The translations under genes and the position numbers were made by a program. Below, piece by piece: positions 16,328 through 54,916 of a stretch of 64,000 nucleotides of DNA. Source of the DNA: Gammaproteobacteria bacterium (GTDB lineage: Bacteria > Pseudomonadota > Gammaproteobacteria > UBA4575). Below the pieces are notes generated by a model. That model had not been told where the DNA came from, searched no databases, and worked only from the letters and a program-made list of their open reading frames with translations. Positions within the stretch are counted from its first letter, which is position 1. Each line of letters begins with the position of its first letter. Location: NCBI GenBank assembly GCA_963662355.1, contig OY759361.1, forward strand, positions 226,942 through 290,941, in the 5' to 3' direction.

Positions 16328-16722
16328 GAGTAGGAGTCTGCCTGTAAGCCGGGTTCTGTCATGGGCAGCCATTCATCTGGGATTCATGTCACCATGAACC
16401 TCAAGCAACCTACCCGGGGGCCATACGGGCCATATGCCGGATATTTCCGCGCCCCTCTATTCGGTCTTGCTCCAGGTGGGGTTTACCTAGCCACAACTAT
16501 TACTAGTTGTGCGGTGCGCTCTTACCACACCGTTTCACCCTTACCTAGCTCATCCGTCTGAATGATATTCAAGCGAAGCAGCCAGGCGGTCTACTCTCTG
16601 TTGCACTTTCCATGGACTCACATCCTCCAGGTATTACCTGGCACCCTGCCCGTGGAGCCCGGACTTTCCTCCCTCCTGCCTTTCCATTGAGGACGCAGGA
16701 AGGCGACTGCCTGGCAGACTCC
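16328..16722 (-). ncRNA. rnpB: RNase P RNA, bacterial type A (M1 RNA)
   Basis: The reverse complement reads ...GGAGUCUGCCAGGCAGUCGCCUUCCUGCGUCCUCAAUGGAAAGGCAGGAGGGAGGAAAGUCCGGGCUCCACGGGCAGGGUGCCAGGUAA...AGGUAAGGGUGAAACGGUGUGGUAAGAGCGCACC...ACAGAACCCGGCUUACAGGCAGACUCC. This is near-colinear with E. coli M1 RNA, including the P4 GGAAAGUCCGGGCUCC and AGGGCAGGGUGCCAGGUAA motifs. The 5' and 3' ends pair as helix P1 (GAGUCUGCC/GGCAGACUC). Ends approximate to about 5 nt. Confidence 0.92.
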
Positions 16723-47070: not shown

Positions 47071-49098
47071 ATGCCCGGCCCAAAACGCAAGATCCTTGTC
47101 ACCAGTGCACTGCCTTATGCCAACGGGCCTATACATATCGGGCATTTGGTCGAGTACATCCAAACTGATATCTGGGTGCGATTCCAGAAGATGTGCGGGC
47201 ACGATTGTATATATATATGTGCAGACGACGCCCACGGCACACCGATTATGCTCAAGGCACAACAGGAAGGTATCACGCCGGAACAACTGATTTCACAAGT
47301 AGGCTCAGAACATGAGAAAGATTTTTCTGACTTCCATATTCAGTTTGATAATTACCACTCTACTCACTCGGAAGAAAACAGGGCTCATGCCACCAAAATA
47401 TATGAACGTCTGAGAGATAATGGGCACATCACAACTAAAATGGTTGTAGACCTGTATGACCCGCAAAACAAAGTGTTCCTGCCTGATCGTTTCGTCAAGG
47501 GCGAATGCCCAAAATGTTACGCAAAAGACCAATACGGGGATAACTGTGAAGTCTGTGGAAACACGTACACTCCGGCAGACTTAATCAATCCCTACTCATC
47601 TGTGAGCGGCGCAACACCAATAAAGAAAGAAAACCTGCATTATTTCTTTACGCTGAATGACTTCAAAGATATGTTGCATGAATGGATTGAGAGCACGTCA
47701 TTGCAACCAGAAATTACCAATAAGCTGCAAGAGTGGTTTAATGCGGGTCTCAGAGACTGGGATATCTCCCGTGATGCTCCATATTTTGGTTTTGAAATTC
47801 CCGATGCGCCGGGCAAGTACTTTTATGTGTGGCTCGATGCACCTGTAGGGTATATGGCAAGCCTGCAGCAATATTGTGACCGGACCGGAAAAGAATTTGA
47901 CGGGTACTGGAAGGTTGGTAGCGATCACGAAGTACACCATTTTATTGGCAAGGATATTGCGTACTTCCATATGCTCTTTTGGCCTGCCATGCTGCATGGG
48001 GCGAACTACCGGACCCCTACTGCAGTGTATTGTCACGGGTTCCTGACAGTTGATGGACAAAAAATGTCCAAATCACGAGGCACATTTATCAAGGCGCGCA
48101 CCTATCTTGATTATCTAAACCCGGAATATCTACGCTACTACTTTGCAGCAAAGCTGGGACCCGATGTAAGTGACATCGACCTCAGCCTGAATGATTTTCG
48201 GCAGCGCGTAAACAGTGATGTGGTTGGCAAACTTGTAAACATTGCCAGCCGCTGCTCCGGCTTTATCCAAAAGCATTTTGAGGGAAGACTCACATCAGAT
48301 TTTATCGCAGGAAGCCAGCAAATATTTGACGAGGCTGTCAGTACAAACGAGCACATAAAACAGCTTTACGAGTCCCGTCATTACTCGCAAGCCATGCGTG
48401 CCATCATGAACCACGCTGATGCGACCAACCAGGTGATCGATGCCCACAAGCCATGGGACCTAGCTAAAAGCGAAGCCAAAATGGAACAGGTACAGCAGGT
48501 ATGCAGTTTTGGCCTGAATATGTATCGCCTGCTGATAGGCTATTTAAAACCAGTCATACCAGAGCTTGCAGAGAAATCGGAAGCTTTTCTTAATACGGAA
48601 ACCTGCTGGGATGATCTGGCCTCAGGAAAGCCTTTGCCCGAAGGACACAGGATCAAAATTTTTAAACCCCTGATTACACGTATCGAACAACAGCGAATTG
48701 AAAAAATGATAGAAGATTCCAAACAGGATGAGATAACCAGCATATCGGACCCAATCATGGATGAAGTTATTTTTGACGATTTTGCTAAGCTGGATTTCAG
48801 GATTGCAAAAATTATTCAGGCAGAACATGTTGAGGGGGCAGACAAGCTGCTGAAACTGACACTAGACCTGGGTGAACCCACTGGGAACATACAGCGGACC
48901 GTATTTGCAGGAATCAAGTCTGCCTATGCCCCCGATGAAATTGAGGGGCGATTAACCGTGGTGGTAGCTAATCTGGCACCACGCAAAATGCGTTTCGGTA
49001 CCTCAGAGGGGATGGTGCTGGCAGCAGGTCCCGGTGGAAAAGATATATTCCTGTTGCAACCTGACAGCGGTGCCACACCTGGCATGCGTGTAAAATAA
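47071..49098 (+). CDS. metG: Methionine--tRNA ligase
   Basis: HIGH motif ([12 protein letters not shown]), KMSKS motif, Zn knuckle (CPKCY...CEVCG), C-terminal tRNA-binding (EMAP-like) domain. Confidence 0.9.
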
Positions 49099-49105
49099 TT
49101 CACCT

Positions 49106-49579
49106 GTGCAAAACACTGATACCGGCATCCCGACTGGCAAATATATTGCAAGAATTGATGAACAACGCTGTATTGGTTGTACCTTATGCATCAAGGCCTG
49201 CCCATTCGATGCAATCGTGGGTGCGCCAAGGCATGTACACACCGTCATTAACCGCAATTGCACCGGTTGCAAACTGTGTCTCTCCCCATGTCCTGTAAAT
49301 TGTATAGAACTGGAAACAAATACCCGGTATCAGCTAATTTGCCAAACCCTTTCCCCAAGCAAGCAACGGAAATTAAAAGAAAAATTTGCCGTATTCTCGC
49401 GTGAAAACAAAAAACGGCGCATGCATAGAATCGGGCGCATCCAGAAAGAAAAGCAGGAACTATTCGAACGCAGGAAAAAAGAAATTTCAACCAACAAACA
49501 GACTTTAATTCAAAACAATGAACAAGGAAAAATGCACGGAAATATTTCATCGCCTGAGGAAGGCAAATCCCCGCCCTAG
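49106..49579 (+). CDS. 4Fe-4S dicluster ferredoxin, RnfB/RsxB C-terminal-domain-like
   Basis: Two CxxCxxCxxxCP motifs ([24 protein letters not shown]) that align with the C-terminal half of E. coli RsxB. Lys/Arg-rich tail. The 3' end overlaps the nth start by about 60 nt. Confidence 0.7.
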
Positions 49580-50156
49580 GACAGAACTCGTACATGAATC
49601 AGATTTCGAGCTTTTGGTCTCAGTCATACTTTCTGCCCAAGCTACAGATGTAAGCGTAAACAAGGCAACGAAAGAGCTTTTCAAAGTAGCCAATACCCCG
49701 AGGAAAATGCTGGCACTGGGAGAAATAAAACTGAAAACCCACATCAAGTCAATCGGTTTGTATAACAGCAAAGCTGAAAATATCATCAAAACTTGCCACA
49801 TTCTGGACAAGATATACGGAAGCCGCATCCCGCAAAATCGCGAAGCCTTGCAGACTTTACCGGGTGTCGGCAGAAAAACGGCAAACGTAGTACTTAACAA
49901 TGCATTTAACCAGCCCACCATTGCGGTTGATACACATATTTTCCGGGTTGCTAACCGGACAGGAATTGCACCGGGGAAAAATGTTCTTGCCGTAGAACTG
50001 AAACTCGAAGAACGCGTACCGGAAAAGTTTAAACTACATGCACATCACTGGTTGATCCTGCTGGGACGGTATATTTGCATGGCACGCAAGCCAAAATGCT
50101 ATGAATGTCCGATTTTGGATCTGTGCGAGTACAGCGAAAAGAACGTAACCCAATAG
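49518..50156 (+). CDS. nth: Endonuclease III
   Basis: Near-colinear with E. coli Nth: [21 protein letters not shown], Hh[18 protein letters not shown], and C-terminal 4Fe-4S loop [17 protein letters not shown]. Confidence 0.9.
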
Positions 50157-50182: not shown

Positions 50183-50833
50183 ATGTCAGGATTCGTTATA
50201 ACCATTAACTCATTACAAGATATTCTGGACAGGTTTCGCATATTTGATTTCTTAGGACCCCTTGCCCTGCGGCTGTATCTGGCACCTGTATTTATAGCTG
50301 TTGGCCTGCATAAATTCATGCATCTGGAAGAAATTGCAAACTGGTTCGGAAACCCGGACTGGGGACTTGGCTTGCCAGTCCCCATGCTCATGGCCATACT
50401 TGCTGCATCTGCAGAACTGTTCGGGGGCATCGCTTTGTTGTTCGGAGTAGCTGTACGCTGGTTAGCAATTCCCCTCATGATTACCATGCTTGTAGCAGCA
50501 TTTGCAGTGCATTGGGACAAAGGCTGGTTTGCAGTAGCACCAGGCAACCCTGCAACCAGCACGGCAAAACCACTAGCATCAATAGGCATCCCTGCAGCAA
50601 AACGCAGCTTGGAAAACAGTGTAGAAGTCGGCAAGCGTCTGGACGCAGCCAAATCATTGCTGAAAAGGCATGGAAACTATAGCTGGCTGACGGAAAAGGG
50701 AAACTTTGTAGTACTTAATAACGGCATTGAATTTTCGGCCACCTATTTTATTATGTTACTGGTGCTGTTTTTCACGGGTCCCGGAAAATACCTGAGTATT
50801 GACTACTGGATTGCCAGACATTTTAGAAAATGA
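50183..50833 (+). CDS. DoxX-family membrane protein with a C-terminal extension
   Basis: AAGGAGG Shine-Dalgarno 6 nt upstream of the ATG at 50183. N-terminal about 135 aa have the DoxX TM pattern (LRLYLAPVFIAVGLHKF...GLPVPMLMAILAASAELFGGIALLFG...IPLMITMLVAAFAVHW). An extra roughly 80-aa C-terminal part carries another TM. The track start at 50105 overlaps nth and is rejected. Confidence 0.75.
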   Translation: MSGFVITINSLQDILDRFRIFDFLGPLALRLYLAPVFIAVGLHKFMHLEEIANWFGNPDWGLGLPVPMLMAILAASAELFGGIALLFGVAVRWLAIPLMITMLVAAFAVHWDKGWFAVAPGNPATSTAKPLASIGIPAAKRSLENSVEVGKRLDAAKSLLKRHGNYSWLTEKGNFVVLNNGIEFSATYFIMLLVLFFTGPGKYLSIDYWIARHFRK

Positions 50834-50899
50834 CGAGTGATTTTTCACAGGTTAATTCCCGCATGTGAGATGCCTGCAAAGCCAGAGAAATAGCAGTAT

Positions 50900-51778
50900 A
50901 TGAACACTAATATTCAAAATACCCATTCTATAACAGGCTCGGGTCTCGGTCTGCGGCGTAATCTTCTCAACGAACTGGAAAACAGCTTTCCTGAAGATGT
51001 TGACTTTATGGAAGTCGCACCAGAAAACTGGATCGGAATTGGAGGAAAACTGGGTAAACGATTTCGTGCCTTTACCGAAAAAATTCCATTTGTAATTCAC
51101 GGACTGTCCCTGTCAATCGGCAGCCCCGCTCCACTGGACGAATCACTTGTACGTGACATCAAGAGTTTTATGCGTGCACACAACATCCGTTGTTACAGTG
51201 AACACCTGAGCTATTGCTCGGATAACGGCCATCTGTACGACTTGATGCCAATCCCATTTACTGAAGAAGCCGTGCACTATGTTGCCGAAAGGATCCGACG
51301 AGTACAGGAAATTCTGGGACAAAAAATAGCTGTGGAAAATGTGTCATATTACGCTGCACCCGGCAAGGAAATGAATGAAATCAGTTTCATCAATTCCGTG
51401 CTCGAAGAAGCGGATTGTGATCTGCTTCTGGATGTAAACAATATCTATGTCAATTCTGTCAATCACCGTTATGACCCTGTTGAATTTCTGCGTGCCTTAC
51501 CTAGCAAGCGCATCGCGTATTGCCATGTTGCTGGCCATTACAATGAGGCAGAAGATTTGCTCGTTGACACGCATGCAGCGGATGTGATTGATCCAGTCTG
51601 GCATTTATTGCACAAAGCCTATGAACTGTTCGGTGTGTTTCCGACCCTGCTTGAGCGCGATTTCAATATTCCTCCCCTAGAGAATCTGTTACAGGAAGTG
51701 CAAACCATTCGCAAGCTTCAGGGAAAATGCAACGCACTACCAGCGTCGCCATGCAAGCAGGCTGATTCAAATCAGTAA
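50900..51778 (+). CDS. DUF692 / UPF0276 family protein (MbnB/HvfB/BufB-like multinuclear-iron TIM-barrel enzyme)
   Basis: 292 aa. Family hallmarks GLGLRRNL, FMEVAPENW, HGLSLSIGS, AVENVSYY, LLLDVNNIYVN, YCHVAGH. Confidence 0.8.
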   Translation: MNTNIQNTHSITGSGLGLRRNLLNELENSFPEDVDFMEVAPENWIGIGGKLGKRFRAFTEKIPFVIHGLSLSIGSPAPLDESLVRDIKSFMRAHNIRCYSEHLSYCSDNGHLYDLMPIPFTEEAVHYVAERIRRVQEILGQKIAVENVSYYAAPGKEMNEISFINSVLEEADCDLLLDVNNIYVNSVNHRYDPVEFLRALPSKRIAYCHVAGHYNEAEDLLVDTHAADVIDPVWHLLHKAYELFGVFPTLLERDFNIPPLENLLQEVQTIRKLQGKCNALPASPCKQADSNQ

Positions 51779-52548
51779 TGTCTTCAGAAATCCCCGAATT
51801 CAAAAAAGTTCAGTACGGGTTTACCGCCCATTTGAGGGATCCGGACCACATTAGTGCGCCAGACGACATCGAAGATCGCCGCATGGAAATTTATCGTGGT
51901 CTTCTCTACCGCAATATACAGAATTTCATTTCCAGCGCATTCCCTGTGCTTCGCAAACTGTACAATGAAGATGACTGGCATAGGATGGTACGGCATTTTT
52001 TTGCCAATCATGAGTCCACATCACCCTATTTCAGGGATATTTCCCGGGAATTTCTTGATTACTTGCAAAATGAACGGGAACCTCAACCTGAAGATCCGGC
52101 CTTTATCAATGAACTGGCCTACTACGAATGGGTTGAGATCTACTTGACCCATGCAGACATCGAGCCTGATATGTCGAATATAGATCCTGATGGGGATCTA
52201 ATGCAAGGCAGACCAGTCCTGTCACCCCTTACAGATTTACGTGGCTACAACTTCCCGGTACACAAAATCAAGCCTGACTTTCAGCCCGAACAAGCAGGCA
52301 GACAGCCTATTTTCCTGATGGTCTACAGAGACTCACAGTACAAAATTGGCTTCATGGAGCTGAATCCCCTTACAGCATCACTGGTAGAGCAGATTAAAGT
52401 TGATAGTTTGAAAACAGGCAGACAACTGCTCAAAGAGATTGCTGAAACGTTGCAGCACCCAGATCCAGATGCTGTGTACAGAGGTGGAGAACAGGCCTTG
52501 AAGCAGCTTCGTGCCAAAGATATTTTACTCGGTACGAAGTTTCAATAA
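51778..52548 (+). CDS. DUF2063 family protein (MbnC/HvfC/BufC-like partner of DUF692)
   Basis: 256 aa. Start overlaps the DUF692 stop (ATGA-type coupling). N-terminal region YRGLLYRNIQNFISSAFPVLRKL and later ELAYYEWVEIYL fit the NGO1945-like DUF2063 family, which invariably partners DUF692. Confidence 0.7.
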   Translation: MSSEIPEFKKVQYGFTAHLRDPDHISAPDDIEDRRMEIYRGLLYRNIQNFISSAFPVLRKLYNEDDWHRMVRHFFANHESTSPYFRDISREFLDYLQNEREPQPEDPAFINELAYYEWVEIYLTHADIEPDMSNIDPDGDLMQGRPVLSPLTDLRGYNFPVHKIKPDFQPEQAGRQPIFLMVYRDSQYKIGFMELNPLTASLVEQIKVDSLKTGRQLLKEIAETLQHPDPDAVYRGGEQALKQLRAKDILLGTKFQ

Positions 52549-52554
52549 AGTGAT

Positions 52555-53112
52555 TCACTTTCTTGACTGATTTTCGCTAGACCAGAGCATCTCTGGATGG
52601 CCTGAATGTCTGGACAAAATTCTGCATGTCACAAACAGAAAATCTGACAACCGGTTCAGGTAAGCCTGAATTTCCGGGTTAACAGCCTGATGTTGACTTA
52701 AGTTCACTACACTCCGTTCTGCCCGCCTGCATACAGCGCGCGCCAGATGACAGATTGAAGCTGCATCCCCGCCATTCGGCAAAATGAATTTTTTCAGCAC
52801 CGGTAGGCTTTGACTGAAACTGTCCATCTGTTGCTCTAAACTCGTCACCATGTCGGCATGAATAAGTTCAAGATCAGGATTGCTCAACTCTGCACCCAAG
52901 TTAAACAGCTGGTGCTGAATTTCGATTAGAATGTTCTTTACATCACCTGCCACATCATGCGCAAGTATCATACCGATAACAGAATTCAGTTCATCAACAT
53001 CCCCGATTGCCTGAATTTCCGGGCAATCCTTACGCACACGCCTGCCTCCAGATAAACCTGTTTTGCCCTGATCCCCGGTTCTGGTATAAATTCTGGCGGC
53101 ATGGTCAGGCAT
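52555..53112 (-). CDS. Cob(I)yrinic acid a,c-diamide / cob(I)alamin adenosyltransferase, PduO/MMAB type
   Basis: 185 aa. IYTRTGDQGKTGL N-terminal ATP-binding motif typical of PduO-type adenosyltransferases. Confidence 0.8.
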   Translation of the reverse strand: MPDHAARIYTRTGDQGKTGLSGGRRVRKDCPEIQAIGDVDELNSVIGMILAHDVAGDVKNILIEIQHQLFNLGAELSNPDLELIHADMVTSLEQQMDSFSQSLPVLKKFILPNGGDAASICHLARAVCRRAERSVVNLSQHQAVNPEIQAYLNRLSDFLFVTCRILSRHSGHPEMLWSSENQSRK

Positions 53113-53131
53113 GTCCGATCACCTGGTAATT

Positions 53132-54916
53132 TCAGTGTACTGGCCTGAACTGCAGTTCCGCAAACACGGACTGGCCAGGCTGATTATAACCTGAGGCCAG
53201 TTCATACTCCTTGTCCAACAGGTTTTCCGCCTTCAATATCAGTGTAGCGTAGGGGAAGTGGTATCCTGCAGACACATCCACCAATCCGTAACCAGATAGA
53301 GTCACTCCACCAAAGTCTCTTCTTTCTGACGTCACCAGACCATTCATCTGAACAAAATATTGTTCCTGTTTATATAGCAGGGATCCGGTCAGCGTGCGCT
53401 TTGCACGCCTTAACAGACGCGAATTTTCGGTCTCATTGCGGGGATCCTGAATTATACCTTCCAGACTGATATCCCAAGGCCCGGAATGATGACTGAATGA
53501 GAACTCGATCCCTTTGATACGTGCCTTTTCAACATTTCTGTTTTCATAAACAAAGTTGACCGAATCAACTGCCACGGTTTCGATCAAATCATCAATCCTG
53601 TTTTCAAAAAGCCGAAGTGACAATGCCGTCAGCGGGTTCAGGTCATGCCTGACCCCGGCTTCAACGGAACGCGAGGTTTCTTCCTTCAAGCCAGGGTTCC
53701 CGCCAAATCCGAATCTTGCATTGCTGTCAGGTGCCCGAAACCCTGTACCGATGCTGGCGAACAGCTTTGTCTTGCTGGCCAGACTGTAGCCATATTCCAG
53801 ATTCCAAGTCATTGCATCATCAAAATCTTCATGATCCGTATAACGGGTTGCGGTGGACAGGCTATGTCCGTTTCTGATGTATTGCTCATGCAAATATACC
53901 GAGAAAATGTCCGTGTCTTCTCGATAAGTGGTCCCGAAAGACAACGAGTCAGTATTCTCATCTGCAAGGGAAACTCCTAGTACGAGAACGTTATTATTCA
54001 GCGTGAGGTCATTTTTCCAGTCATATACTACCCTGTCAGTATAGGCAAAATCTTTATCTCCCAAAAAGTTGCTCTGGTTTTGGCGAACCTCATCCTTCGT
54101 TCGTGATATGGACAGGGTAGACTGCCAGTTTTCAGACATGGGTATAGTCAGCCCGGTCTGCAAAATATTGTTCTTGCGATCTTGGTCGAGATCGCCAAAA
54201 CTGTCATATTCCGTATTACCTCTTGCCTGCCAGAATCCTAATGAAAGCTCACCTGTGCCAACTTTCGTTTTCATGTTCAGGTCGAACGTTTCATTGTCAT
54301 GCCCGTGATCCGAATTGGATGTACTTCTCGCAGGAAACCCTCTTGTATCCAGTCGACTGAAAGACAGATCACCCGATGCACGGTCATTCCCGTAACTCAG
54401 ATTGACACTTTGCTCGCTTGTATCATATTTGCCTTGCATGACATGAAAGTCAGCAGAACTCCCAACACCTTGACCATAGGTAATGATATTGATCACACCC
54501 CCAACAGCCTCCGACCCATACACTGTCGAGCGAGGTCCTTTAACAACCTCAATGCGCTCAATTGCTGATGTATTGATCATCTCCAGTGCACCTGCACCAG
54601 TCGTGGCAGAATTCATTTTTATACCGTTAATCAGTATCGTAGAATGGTTACTGTTGGTACCACGGATAAACACGGATGTCTGCTGACCTATTCCGCCGGT
54701 ACGCCCGATATCCAGACCCGCGTGCCACCGCAACAAGCCTGCAATGTCCACAGAAGGACTCCGCTCAATCATTTCACGATTAATGATTATCAAGGAAGGC
54801 ACAACGTCTTTCAGGGACTGTGAATATCTTGCAGGAGTTACAACGACCTCTTCAACTGCATGGCTCAATGAACTCATACCTATAAGCCACATTATCAAAA
54901 GGTTTTTGATGTTCAT
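53132..54916 (-). CDS. TonB-dependent outer-membrane receptor, BtuB (cobalamin)-like
   Basis: 594 aa. Signal peptide. TonB box EEVVVTPAR. Plug domain then beta-barrel ending in an aromatic-rich C-terminus. Co-oriented 20 nt upstream of the adenosyltransferase. Confidence 0.8.
   Translation of the reverse strand: MNIKNLLIMWLIGMSSLSHAVEEVVVTPARYSQSLKDVVPSLIIINREMIERSPSVDIAGLLRWHAGLDIGRTGGIGQQTSVFIRGTNSNHSTILINGIKMNSATTGAGALEMINTSAIERIEVVKGPRSTVYGSEAVGGVINIITYGQGVGSSADFHVMQGKYDTSEQSVNLSYGNDRASGDLSFSRLDTRGFPARSTSNSDHGHDNETFDLNMKTKVGTGELSLGFWQARGNTEYDSFGDLDQDRKNNILQTGLTIPMSENWQSTLSISRTKDEVRQNQSNFLGDKDFAYTDRVVYDWKNDLTLNNNVLVLGVSLADENTDSLSFGTTYREDTDIFSVYLHEQYIRNGHSLSTATRYTDHEDFDDAMTWNLEYGYSLASKTKLFASIGTGFRAPDSNARFGFGGNPGLKEETSRSVEAGVRHDLNPLTALSLRLFENRIDDLIETVAVDSVNFVYENRNVEKARIKGIEFSFSHHSGPWDISLEGIIQDPRNETENSRLLRRAKRTLTGSLLYKQEQYFVQMNGLVTSERRDFGGVTLSGYGLVDVSAGYHFPYATLILKAENLLDKEYELASGYNQPGQSVFAELQFRPVH

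Follow-up and report, generated by a model that had tools for sequence, protein, structure and literature searches.

The DNA analysed here, hereafter the window, is a stretch of 64,000 nucleotides from gammaproteobacterial contig OY759361.1, and its positions 50183-52548 hold three consecutive + strand genes whose products match the maturation proteins of copper-binding secreted peptides. The first, hvfX (50183-50833), encodes a DoxX-family membrane protein (NF050144, 228.5 bits; PF07681, E 9.5e-22). The second, hvfB (50900-51778), encodes an enzyme of the MNIO family (multinuclear non-haem iron oxidative enzymes), formerly DUF692 (NF003818, 451 bits; PF05114, E 3.9e-106), and the third, hvfC (51778-52548), its DUF2063/RRE-type partner (PME type 1; NF050145, 296.9 bits), in which an RRE-type C-terminal domain (PF22106) stands beside PF09836. 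All three proteins exceed the equivalog cut-offs of the NCBIfam profiles (80, 360 and 142 bits, respectively), and the DoxX/DUF692/DUF2063 trio named in an earlier note on this DNA is borne out. Judged by these profile matches, the trio is HvfX/HvfB/HvfC, the ordinary set of maturation proteins for a secreted copper-binding peptide of the Haemophilus oxazolin type.

The spacing of these genes leaves little room for a fourth. Between the end of nth (50156) and the start of hvfX (50183) there are 26 nt, in which a Shine-Dalgarno sequence, AAGGAGG, precedes the ATG by 5 nt. The 66 nt that separate the end of hvfX (50833) from the start of hvfB (50900) form a gene-free spacer (50834-50899), too short for a gene and without an open reading frame (ORF). 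The hvfC start overlaps the hvfB stop as TAATG, and only 6 nt lie between the end of hvfC (52548) and that of the convergent gene cobO (52555). The earlier note had given these gaps and the coupling of hvfB and hvfC exactly. In Haemophilus influenzae the operon order is hvfX-hvfA-hvfB-hvfC and the product is oxazolin (PMC11252979). Since the precursor gene hvfA lies there between hvfX and hvfB, the 66-nt spacer of the window corresponds to the hvfA site of the type system.

The earlier note had also pointed out that no precursor gene is visible at the locus, and this holds for the whole window. The motifs EGKCG and GKCG are absent from all six frames of the 64 kb, hidden Markov models (HMMs) built from 50 HvfA sequences have no match there, and regular expressions alone, used for DUF2282-like motifs and for motifs resembling the NPF..SGY of the HvfA leader, found none. 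Because the motif, HMM and regular-expression searches were all empty, the lack of a local precursor is confirmed: neither the gaps between the genes nor the window hold an EGKCG precursor with a Sec signal peptide beside the enzymes. We reject a hidden precursor in or near the locus, since nothing was found when the window and loci L001-L011 were searched in six frames for motifs and with HMMs.

A precursor gene does exist elsewhere in the genome of the same species. Positions 40900-61778 of the window are 99.914% identical to locus L002 on contig ena:ERZ25084387:ctg36531l (18 mismatches in 20,879 nt), and the window is 99.53% identical to locus L001 (ERZ18545484:ptg001236l). By this sequence identity, the window belongs to the species of L001 and L002 and represents a third strain or assembly very close to both. 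The HvfC call in L001 is 6 aa longer than that of the window (262 vs 256 aa). The contig of L002, 2,152,178 bp long, carries both hvfXBC and, at 95,725-96,087 (L088:9468-9830), an hvfA gene upstream of folD. Its product of 120 aa, MKAKSELKPLVVAVGAVLATGAFGISTASADQDLFQMTELSAGYMVADSHGAAEEGKCGEGKCGEGESEEDKSEEGKCGEGKCGEGESEEDKSEEGKCGEGKCGEGKCGEGKSEEGSDSS, scores 63.3 bits on the HvfA-family model NF050137 (cut-off 19.5). The protein begins with the signal peptide MKAKSELKPLVVAVGAVLATGAFGISTASA, predicted to be of the Sec type with an ASA-D cleavage motif (judged by eye), followed by a conserved DLFQMTELSAGYMVA segment and seven EGKCG motifs; the segment FQMTELSAGYMVA is conserved. An EGKCG-repeat precursor with a predicted Sec signal peptide is thus present on the very contig that carries hvfXBC. 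Along the contig 1.68 Mb separate hvfA from hvfB (1,773,697-1,774,575), a distance that would shrink to 0.47 Mb on a circular molecule. The gene was reached through a profile of the HvfA proteins of the nearest relatives, which gave thousands of homologues and among them two that led to folD-linked hvfA genes (OZ244849.1 and OZ244850.1), and then by using FolD as a synteny anchor (P0207). Among the matches listed in the first HvfA profile search there was no protein from the contig with hvfXBC, the 120-aa allele evidently lying below the top-ranked cluster representatives.

This arrangement is conserved in the clade. The gene hvfA stands alone between a gene for a membrane protein of ~180 aa (- strand) and folD (+ strand) in OZ244849.1 (L083), OZ244850.1 (L086) and L087. 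The same split between enzymes and precursor is found in OZ244849.1 (L003 and L083), OZ244850.1 (L009 and L086) and OZ242174.1 (L004 and L091), where roughly 0.30-0.40 Mb separate hvfXBC from hvfA. Of the three options in the earlier note, a substrate encoded elsewhere is the one that the evidence supports: at folD, the same species and three related genomes have a canonical HvfA of the EGKCG type that carries a Sec signal peptide. The three strains with identical FolD all have hvfA at this site (L088:9468-9830, L089:9558-9830 and L090:1069-1311). Their alleles encode 120, 90 and 80 aa, with 7, 5 and 3 EGKCG cysteines, and have identical N and C termini; they differ in length within a 15/60-nt tandem repeat array (TRF score 286), either through true variation in repeat number or through assembly collapse. 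Folding, and folding only, revealed a strong hairpin with a U-tract 3' of hvfA (-29 kcal/mol, z -5.2). Because of this strong terminator hairpin, hvfA is probably monocistronic.

We therefore consider it very probable that the window contains the enzyme half of a two-locus hvf system for a ribosomally synthesized and post-translationally modified peptide (the oxazolin/captophorin type, EGKCG group), whose precursor is the folD-linked monocistronic hvfA at the distance given above. By homology with the systems of H. influenzae, Neisseria gonorrhoeae and F. thermophila (PMC11252979; 10.1101/2025.11.18.689057; 10.64898/2026.06.05.730506; 10.64898/2026.07.17.739211), HvfC would bind HvfA in the cytoplasm and activate HvfB, enabling its mixed-valent diiron state. 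The iron cofactor of HvfB would then carry out a four-electron oxidation of each EGKCG cysteine to a 5-thiooxazole, with a loss of 4 Da per Cys. The modified HvfA would be exported by Sec and its signal peptide cut off, and the acidic mature peptide would bind periplasmic or extracellular copper. In the systems studied, the activity of HvfBC on EGKCG cysteines requires both proteins (PMC11252979; 10.1101/2025.11.18.689057). For the organism studied here, the sequences show that all four components exist and are conserved. We infer by this analogy that the enzymes pair with their substrate in trans, as well as the chemistry and the copper function. The oxazolone/thioamide groups that the earlier note expected on such precursors must be replaced in this scheme, since for HvfA they were reassigned to 5-thiooxazole by the same laboratory (bioRxiv 10.64898/2026.06.05.730506; 10.1101/2025.11.18.689057).

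Several points weigh against this two-locus interpretation. The window's assembly is not provably the one that carries hvfA, though the species is the same, since 18 of 20,879 nt differ. No cis-regulatory motif common to both loci was found that would point to co-regulation of hvfA and hvfXBC: with a position weight matrix derived from the block ~90-120 nt upstream of hvfA (described below), aimed at a common operator or promoter, the best site in the window scored 15.0, and the maximum in shuffled sequence was 17.8. A second MNIO system, or further precursors with another pairing, is possible elsewhere in the genome. The pairing, chemistry and copper function proposed for the host organism rest on homologues, and the dN/dS values reported further on are approximate because dS is saturated.

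An extension compatible with the two-locus interpretation is that HvfBC modify the distal HvfA plus other Cys-containing secreted proteins. Genomes with several or tandem precursors are known, with up to 4 Buf_EGKCG genes (PMC12452194), FonBC accepts many core variants in vitro (10.1101/2025.11.18.689057), and HvfA variants fused to EF-hands are encoded in related metagenomic genomes (P0030). Neither the 64-kb window nor the 20 kb around hvfA contains a second candidate, however, and we regard such a broader substrate range as improbable.

The organization of related loci places the split in an evolutionary context. One genome per species was scanned with HvfB, which gave 80 loci. In 65 of them hvfA lies directly upstream of hvfB, and the precursor ORF combines EGKCG repeats with a signal peptide and the conserved segment NPF-x-M-x-ELSSGYM-x-A. 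The commonest layout is nth-hvfA-hvfB-hvfC-hvfX. More than 30 of the 80 loci, all gammaproteobacterial, have nth upstream of hvfA/hvfB, immediately before the hvf cluster, a striking linkage without an obvious functional reason. The nearest relatives of the window (L003, L004, L005, L007 and L009, with HvfB 76-85% identical) keep the order metG-nth-hvfX-hvfB-hvfC-cobO-TBDR, where TBDR is a TonB-dependent receptor. They have a comparably short hvfX-hvfB spacer and no hvfA within 6 kb on either side of hvfB. Intermediate layouts of the form nth-hvfA-...-hvfX-hvfB-hvfC exist (L058, L061 and L085), and in L010 unrelated genes separate hvfX from hvfA, which lies 5 kb further upstream. The sister locus L012 has the same flanks (metG-nth ... 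cobO-TBDR) and lacks hvfX; its hvfA (L012:5402-5794), with about 10 GxCG motifs by a loose pattern, occupies the position of the window's hvfX. The lineages of the window and of L012 have thus resolved the ancestral cluster in different ways. We infer that the ancestral order was nth-hvfA-(...)-hvfX/hvfB/hvfC, with nth marking the original site of the cluster, and that the clade lost hvfA at the nth locus and kept hvfA at the folD locus.

Some of these loci could be taken to mean that HvfB and HvfC are orphan enzymes, recruited to a non-EGKCG or non-peptide substrate. Like the window, with no precursor in its 64 kb, a few other related loci (L046, L063 and L082) lack an adjacent one. They come from an Ectothiorhodospiraceae metagenome-assembled genome (MAG), a Bathymodiolus methanotrophic endosymbiont and a gammaproteobacterial MAG, and have hvfB-hvfC without a recognisable precursor within 6 kb upstream of hvfB. 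About 4,000 published MNIO loci also have no recognised adjoining precursor (PMC12452194). Yet all clade genomes checked, that of the same species among them, encode a canonical HvfA, HvfB matches the HvfB equivalog at 451 bits, well above BufB, ApyH, MbnB and ChrH, and HvfC retains its RRE-type C-terminal domain, so that we think recruitment to such a substrate very improbable. The suggestions in the earlier note that the substrate might be unusual, the role of the enzymes non-peptide and the pathway cryptic find no support here, because the substrate found is a canonical EGKCG HvfA peptide precursor and the pathway is of the standard hvf type. As the unrelated loci L046, L063 and L082 also lack an upstream precursor, split or orphan layouts arise repeatedly.

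The enzyme genes are maintained by selection. Against clade relatives, the ratio of nonsynonymous to synonymous substitution rates (dN/dS) is 0.06-0.09 for hvfX, 0.04-0.07 for hvfB and 0.07-0.11 for hvfC, level with nth and metG, these values being approximate since dS is saturated (>1). No clade member has an internal stop in any of the three genes, and hvfX, hvfB and hvfC are under purifying selection. Window HvfB matches the H. somni MNIO of PDB entry 3BWW (E 2.8e-75) and retains all metal-binding motifs: IHGLSLS (66-72), EHLS (101-104), VEN (145-147), LDVNN (177-181), HVAGH (209-213), DTH (223-225) and ERD (252-254). The site-3 ligands of H. influenzae HvfB are N175, D242 and H244 (10.64898/2026.07.17.739211), and the Asn and Asp-x-His of window HvfB align with them when matched by motif, not structure. 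The notion that the locus is a decaying remnant, with hvfA deleted from the operon of a reduced (~2 Mb) genome and hvfXBC heading to pseudogenes, would fit the empty ancestral place of hvfA between nth and hvfX/hvfB and the small genomes of the clade (1.7-2.15 Mb), but is hardly credible given that the ORFs are intact in all clade members with dN/dS of 0.04-0.11, as in neighbouring housekeeping genes, that the metal-ligand motifs are conserved, and that the layout is kept in at least four species-level genomes, each with an intact distal hvfA. We reject a recent deletion or pseudogenisation on the conserved clade synteny and the low dN/dS.

The hvf operon of H. influenzae is among the closest known systems. 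All four of its components recur here: HvfX, HvfB and HvfC score above the cut-offs of NCBIfam models derived from it, and the precursor carries EGKCGEGKCG repeats behind a Sec signal peptide. The system described here differs in that hvfA lies outside the operon and is probably monocistronic, and in that hvfXBC directly follow nth. The 120-aa HvfA has seven target cysteines where that of H. influenzae has six, is without the N-terminal disulfide pair, and falls below the cut-off of the strict H. influenzae HvfA equivalog (47 vs 95 bits). The captophorins, or Buf_EGKCG group (fontiphorin, gonophorin), likewise consist of a MNIO, a PME1 partner (DUF2063/RRE) and a precursor with Lys-Cys (EGKCG) repeats (10.1101/2025.11.18.689057; PMC12452194), and the product predicted for the window's system is, as in that group, a 5-thiooxazole copper-binding peptide. 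In contrast to the described captophorin clusters, which are mostly contiguous, the clade keeps precursor and enzymes at two fixed loci in several species.

Bufferins and methanobactin are related as well. The bufferins Buf1 and Buf2 (BufA-BufB-BufC-DoxX) share the enzyme/partner/DoxX architecture and Sec-exported Cys-containing precursors, and have a role in copper stress (PMC11626156). However, window HvfB reaches only 263.9 bits on the BufB model (cut-off 310), and no DUF2282 or 6/12-Cys precursor was seen in the window (DUF2282 by regular expression only). In methanobactin synthesis (MbnA/MbnB/MbnC), an enzyme of the MNIO superfamily and its partner also act on Cys of a copper-binding ribosomal peptide. 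The window differs in that HvfB scores only 48.2 bits on the MbnB model TIGR04159 (cut-off 325), the partner is of the HvfC and not the MbnC type, and no MbnA-like ORF was noted. The chemistry differs as well, methanobactin having oxazolone/thioamide groups where 5-thiooxazole is expected here (10.64898/2026.06.05.730506).

The results indicate neither new chemistry nor a new kind of system. The type is known because a published survey of the MNIO landscape already contains both MNIO loci without an adjacent precursor and Buf_EGKCG precursor genes that stand alone, with very few genomes having Buf_EGKCG precursors without MNIO and partner genes (PMC12452194). Stand-alone EGKCG precursors having been described, the modest addition made here is a replicated and stable two-locus layout. 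In four species-level genomes and three strains, the captophorin precursor lies stably 0.3-0.5 Mb from the enzymes (by the shorter arc where circular), with both under selection, and this stable separation of hvfA and hvfXBC supports action in trans. An apparent orphan is resolved in this way: genome mining restricted to the neighbourhood of MNIO genes would log this cluster as precursor-less, and the case argues for genome-wide precursor searches instead. The earlier note had also raised the possibility of an ammonia-oxidising host. The nearest genomes give this no support, being Gammaproteobacteria/Thiotrichales MAGs with chromosomes of 1.7-2.1 Mb, with no dedicated search for amo genes having been made. 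The HvfB of Nitrosomonas ureae (L049) is only 70% identical to that of the window, and this species has its own contiguous hvfA-hvfB-hvfC.

The surroundings of the distal hvfA may have functional implications. A copper-related cluster begins 2.4 kb downstream of hvfA (L088:11558-16017), and the two are also adjacent in L083, L086, L087 and L091. After hvfA, its order is a SCO1/SenC gene (- strand, divergent), mtoX, a second SCO1/SenC gene, a MauG/MbnH-like di-haem enzyme and a thioredoxin-like protein. The mtoX product is a Cu-dependent methanethiol oxidase (NF052453, 762 bits; cut-off 650). The adjacency of hvfA to mtoX/SCO1 is conserved in the clade and absent from canonical hvf loci; a general linkage of hvf with mtoX/SCO1 is ruled out, there being none in the 80 related hvfB loci. 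It is conceivable, though on balance rather unlikely, that the thiooxazole peptide was recruited to the maturation of methanethiol oxidase, buffering or donating copper in the periplasm, beyond copper detoxification alone. If this were true, the repeat number of hvfA (7, 5 or 3 Cys among strains) would tune copper capacity. On the other side of hvfA, a conserved and divergent gene (L088:8423-8962, - strand) encodes a multi-pass membrane protein of 179 aa that matches no Pfam or NCBIfam family. The 505 nt between the two genes (L088:8963-9467) contain a conserved block, GGTTTACCTGnCTGnATTGnATAnGGTAnCTTT, ~90-120 nt before hvfA. This block has no counterpart in the window, and for riboswitches and small RNAs the 505 nt gave no Rfam match at E <= 1.

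At the enzyme locus, the upstream flank consists of metG (47071-49098; ORF map and profile search) and nth (49518-50156, + strand), which encodes endonuclease III with Pfam domains HhH-GPD, HHH and EndIII_4Fe-2S (a 4Fe-4S domain). A terminator-like site was looked for on the + strand between nth and hvfX and none was seen, so that transcription from nth may continue into hvfXBC, and nth and hvfXBC probably form one transcription unit. Scans for sigma-70 promoters and terminators around hvfXBC and around hvfA gave matches at chance level only. Downstream, the locus is bounded by the convergent gene for cob(I)alamin adenosyltransferase (cobO, 52555-53112, - strand; PF01923, E 3.9e-57), which lies outside the system, and beyond it by the TonB-dependent receptor gene (53132-54916, - strand). 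No cobalamin riboswitch was detected upstream of this pair (52555-54916).

A few other features were observed. A gene for a FMN-dependent protein of the glutamate synthase family (PF01645, ~500 aa) lies directly upstream of hvfX in four related loci (L085:8476-9975, L010:3618-5114, L008:2358-3872 and L011:3650-5149), in two of which, L085 and L010, it stands between hvfA and hvfX. The hvf cluster may include it as an accessory gene; no mention of it was found in the cited literature. No tRNA genes are present in the window, and a bacterial RNase P class A RNA (16329-16722, - strand; 324 bits) is its sole Rfam family at the gathering threshold. Finally, between metG and nth, a + strand ORF of 157 aa (49106-49579) encodes a ferredoxin-like protein that combines a clear 4Fe-4S dicluster domain (Fer4_21, E 2.4e-19) with a tail rich in Lys and Glu. 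The ORF begins with GTG 8 nt past metG and shares 62 nt with the start of nth. This gene appears to be under-called, since the calls on the public contigs hold only its last 52 aa (L001/L002 8522-8680).

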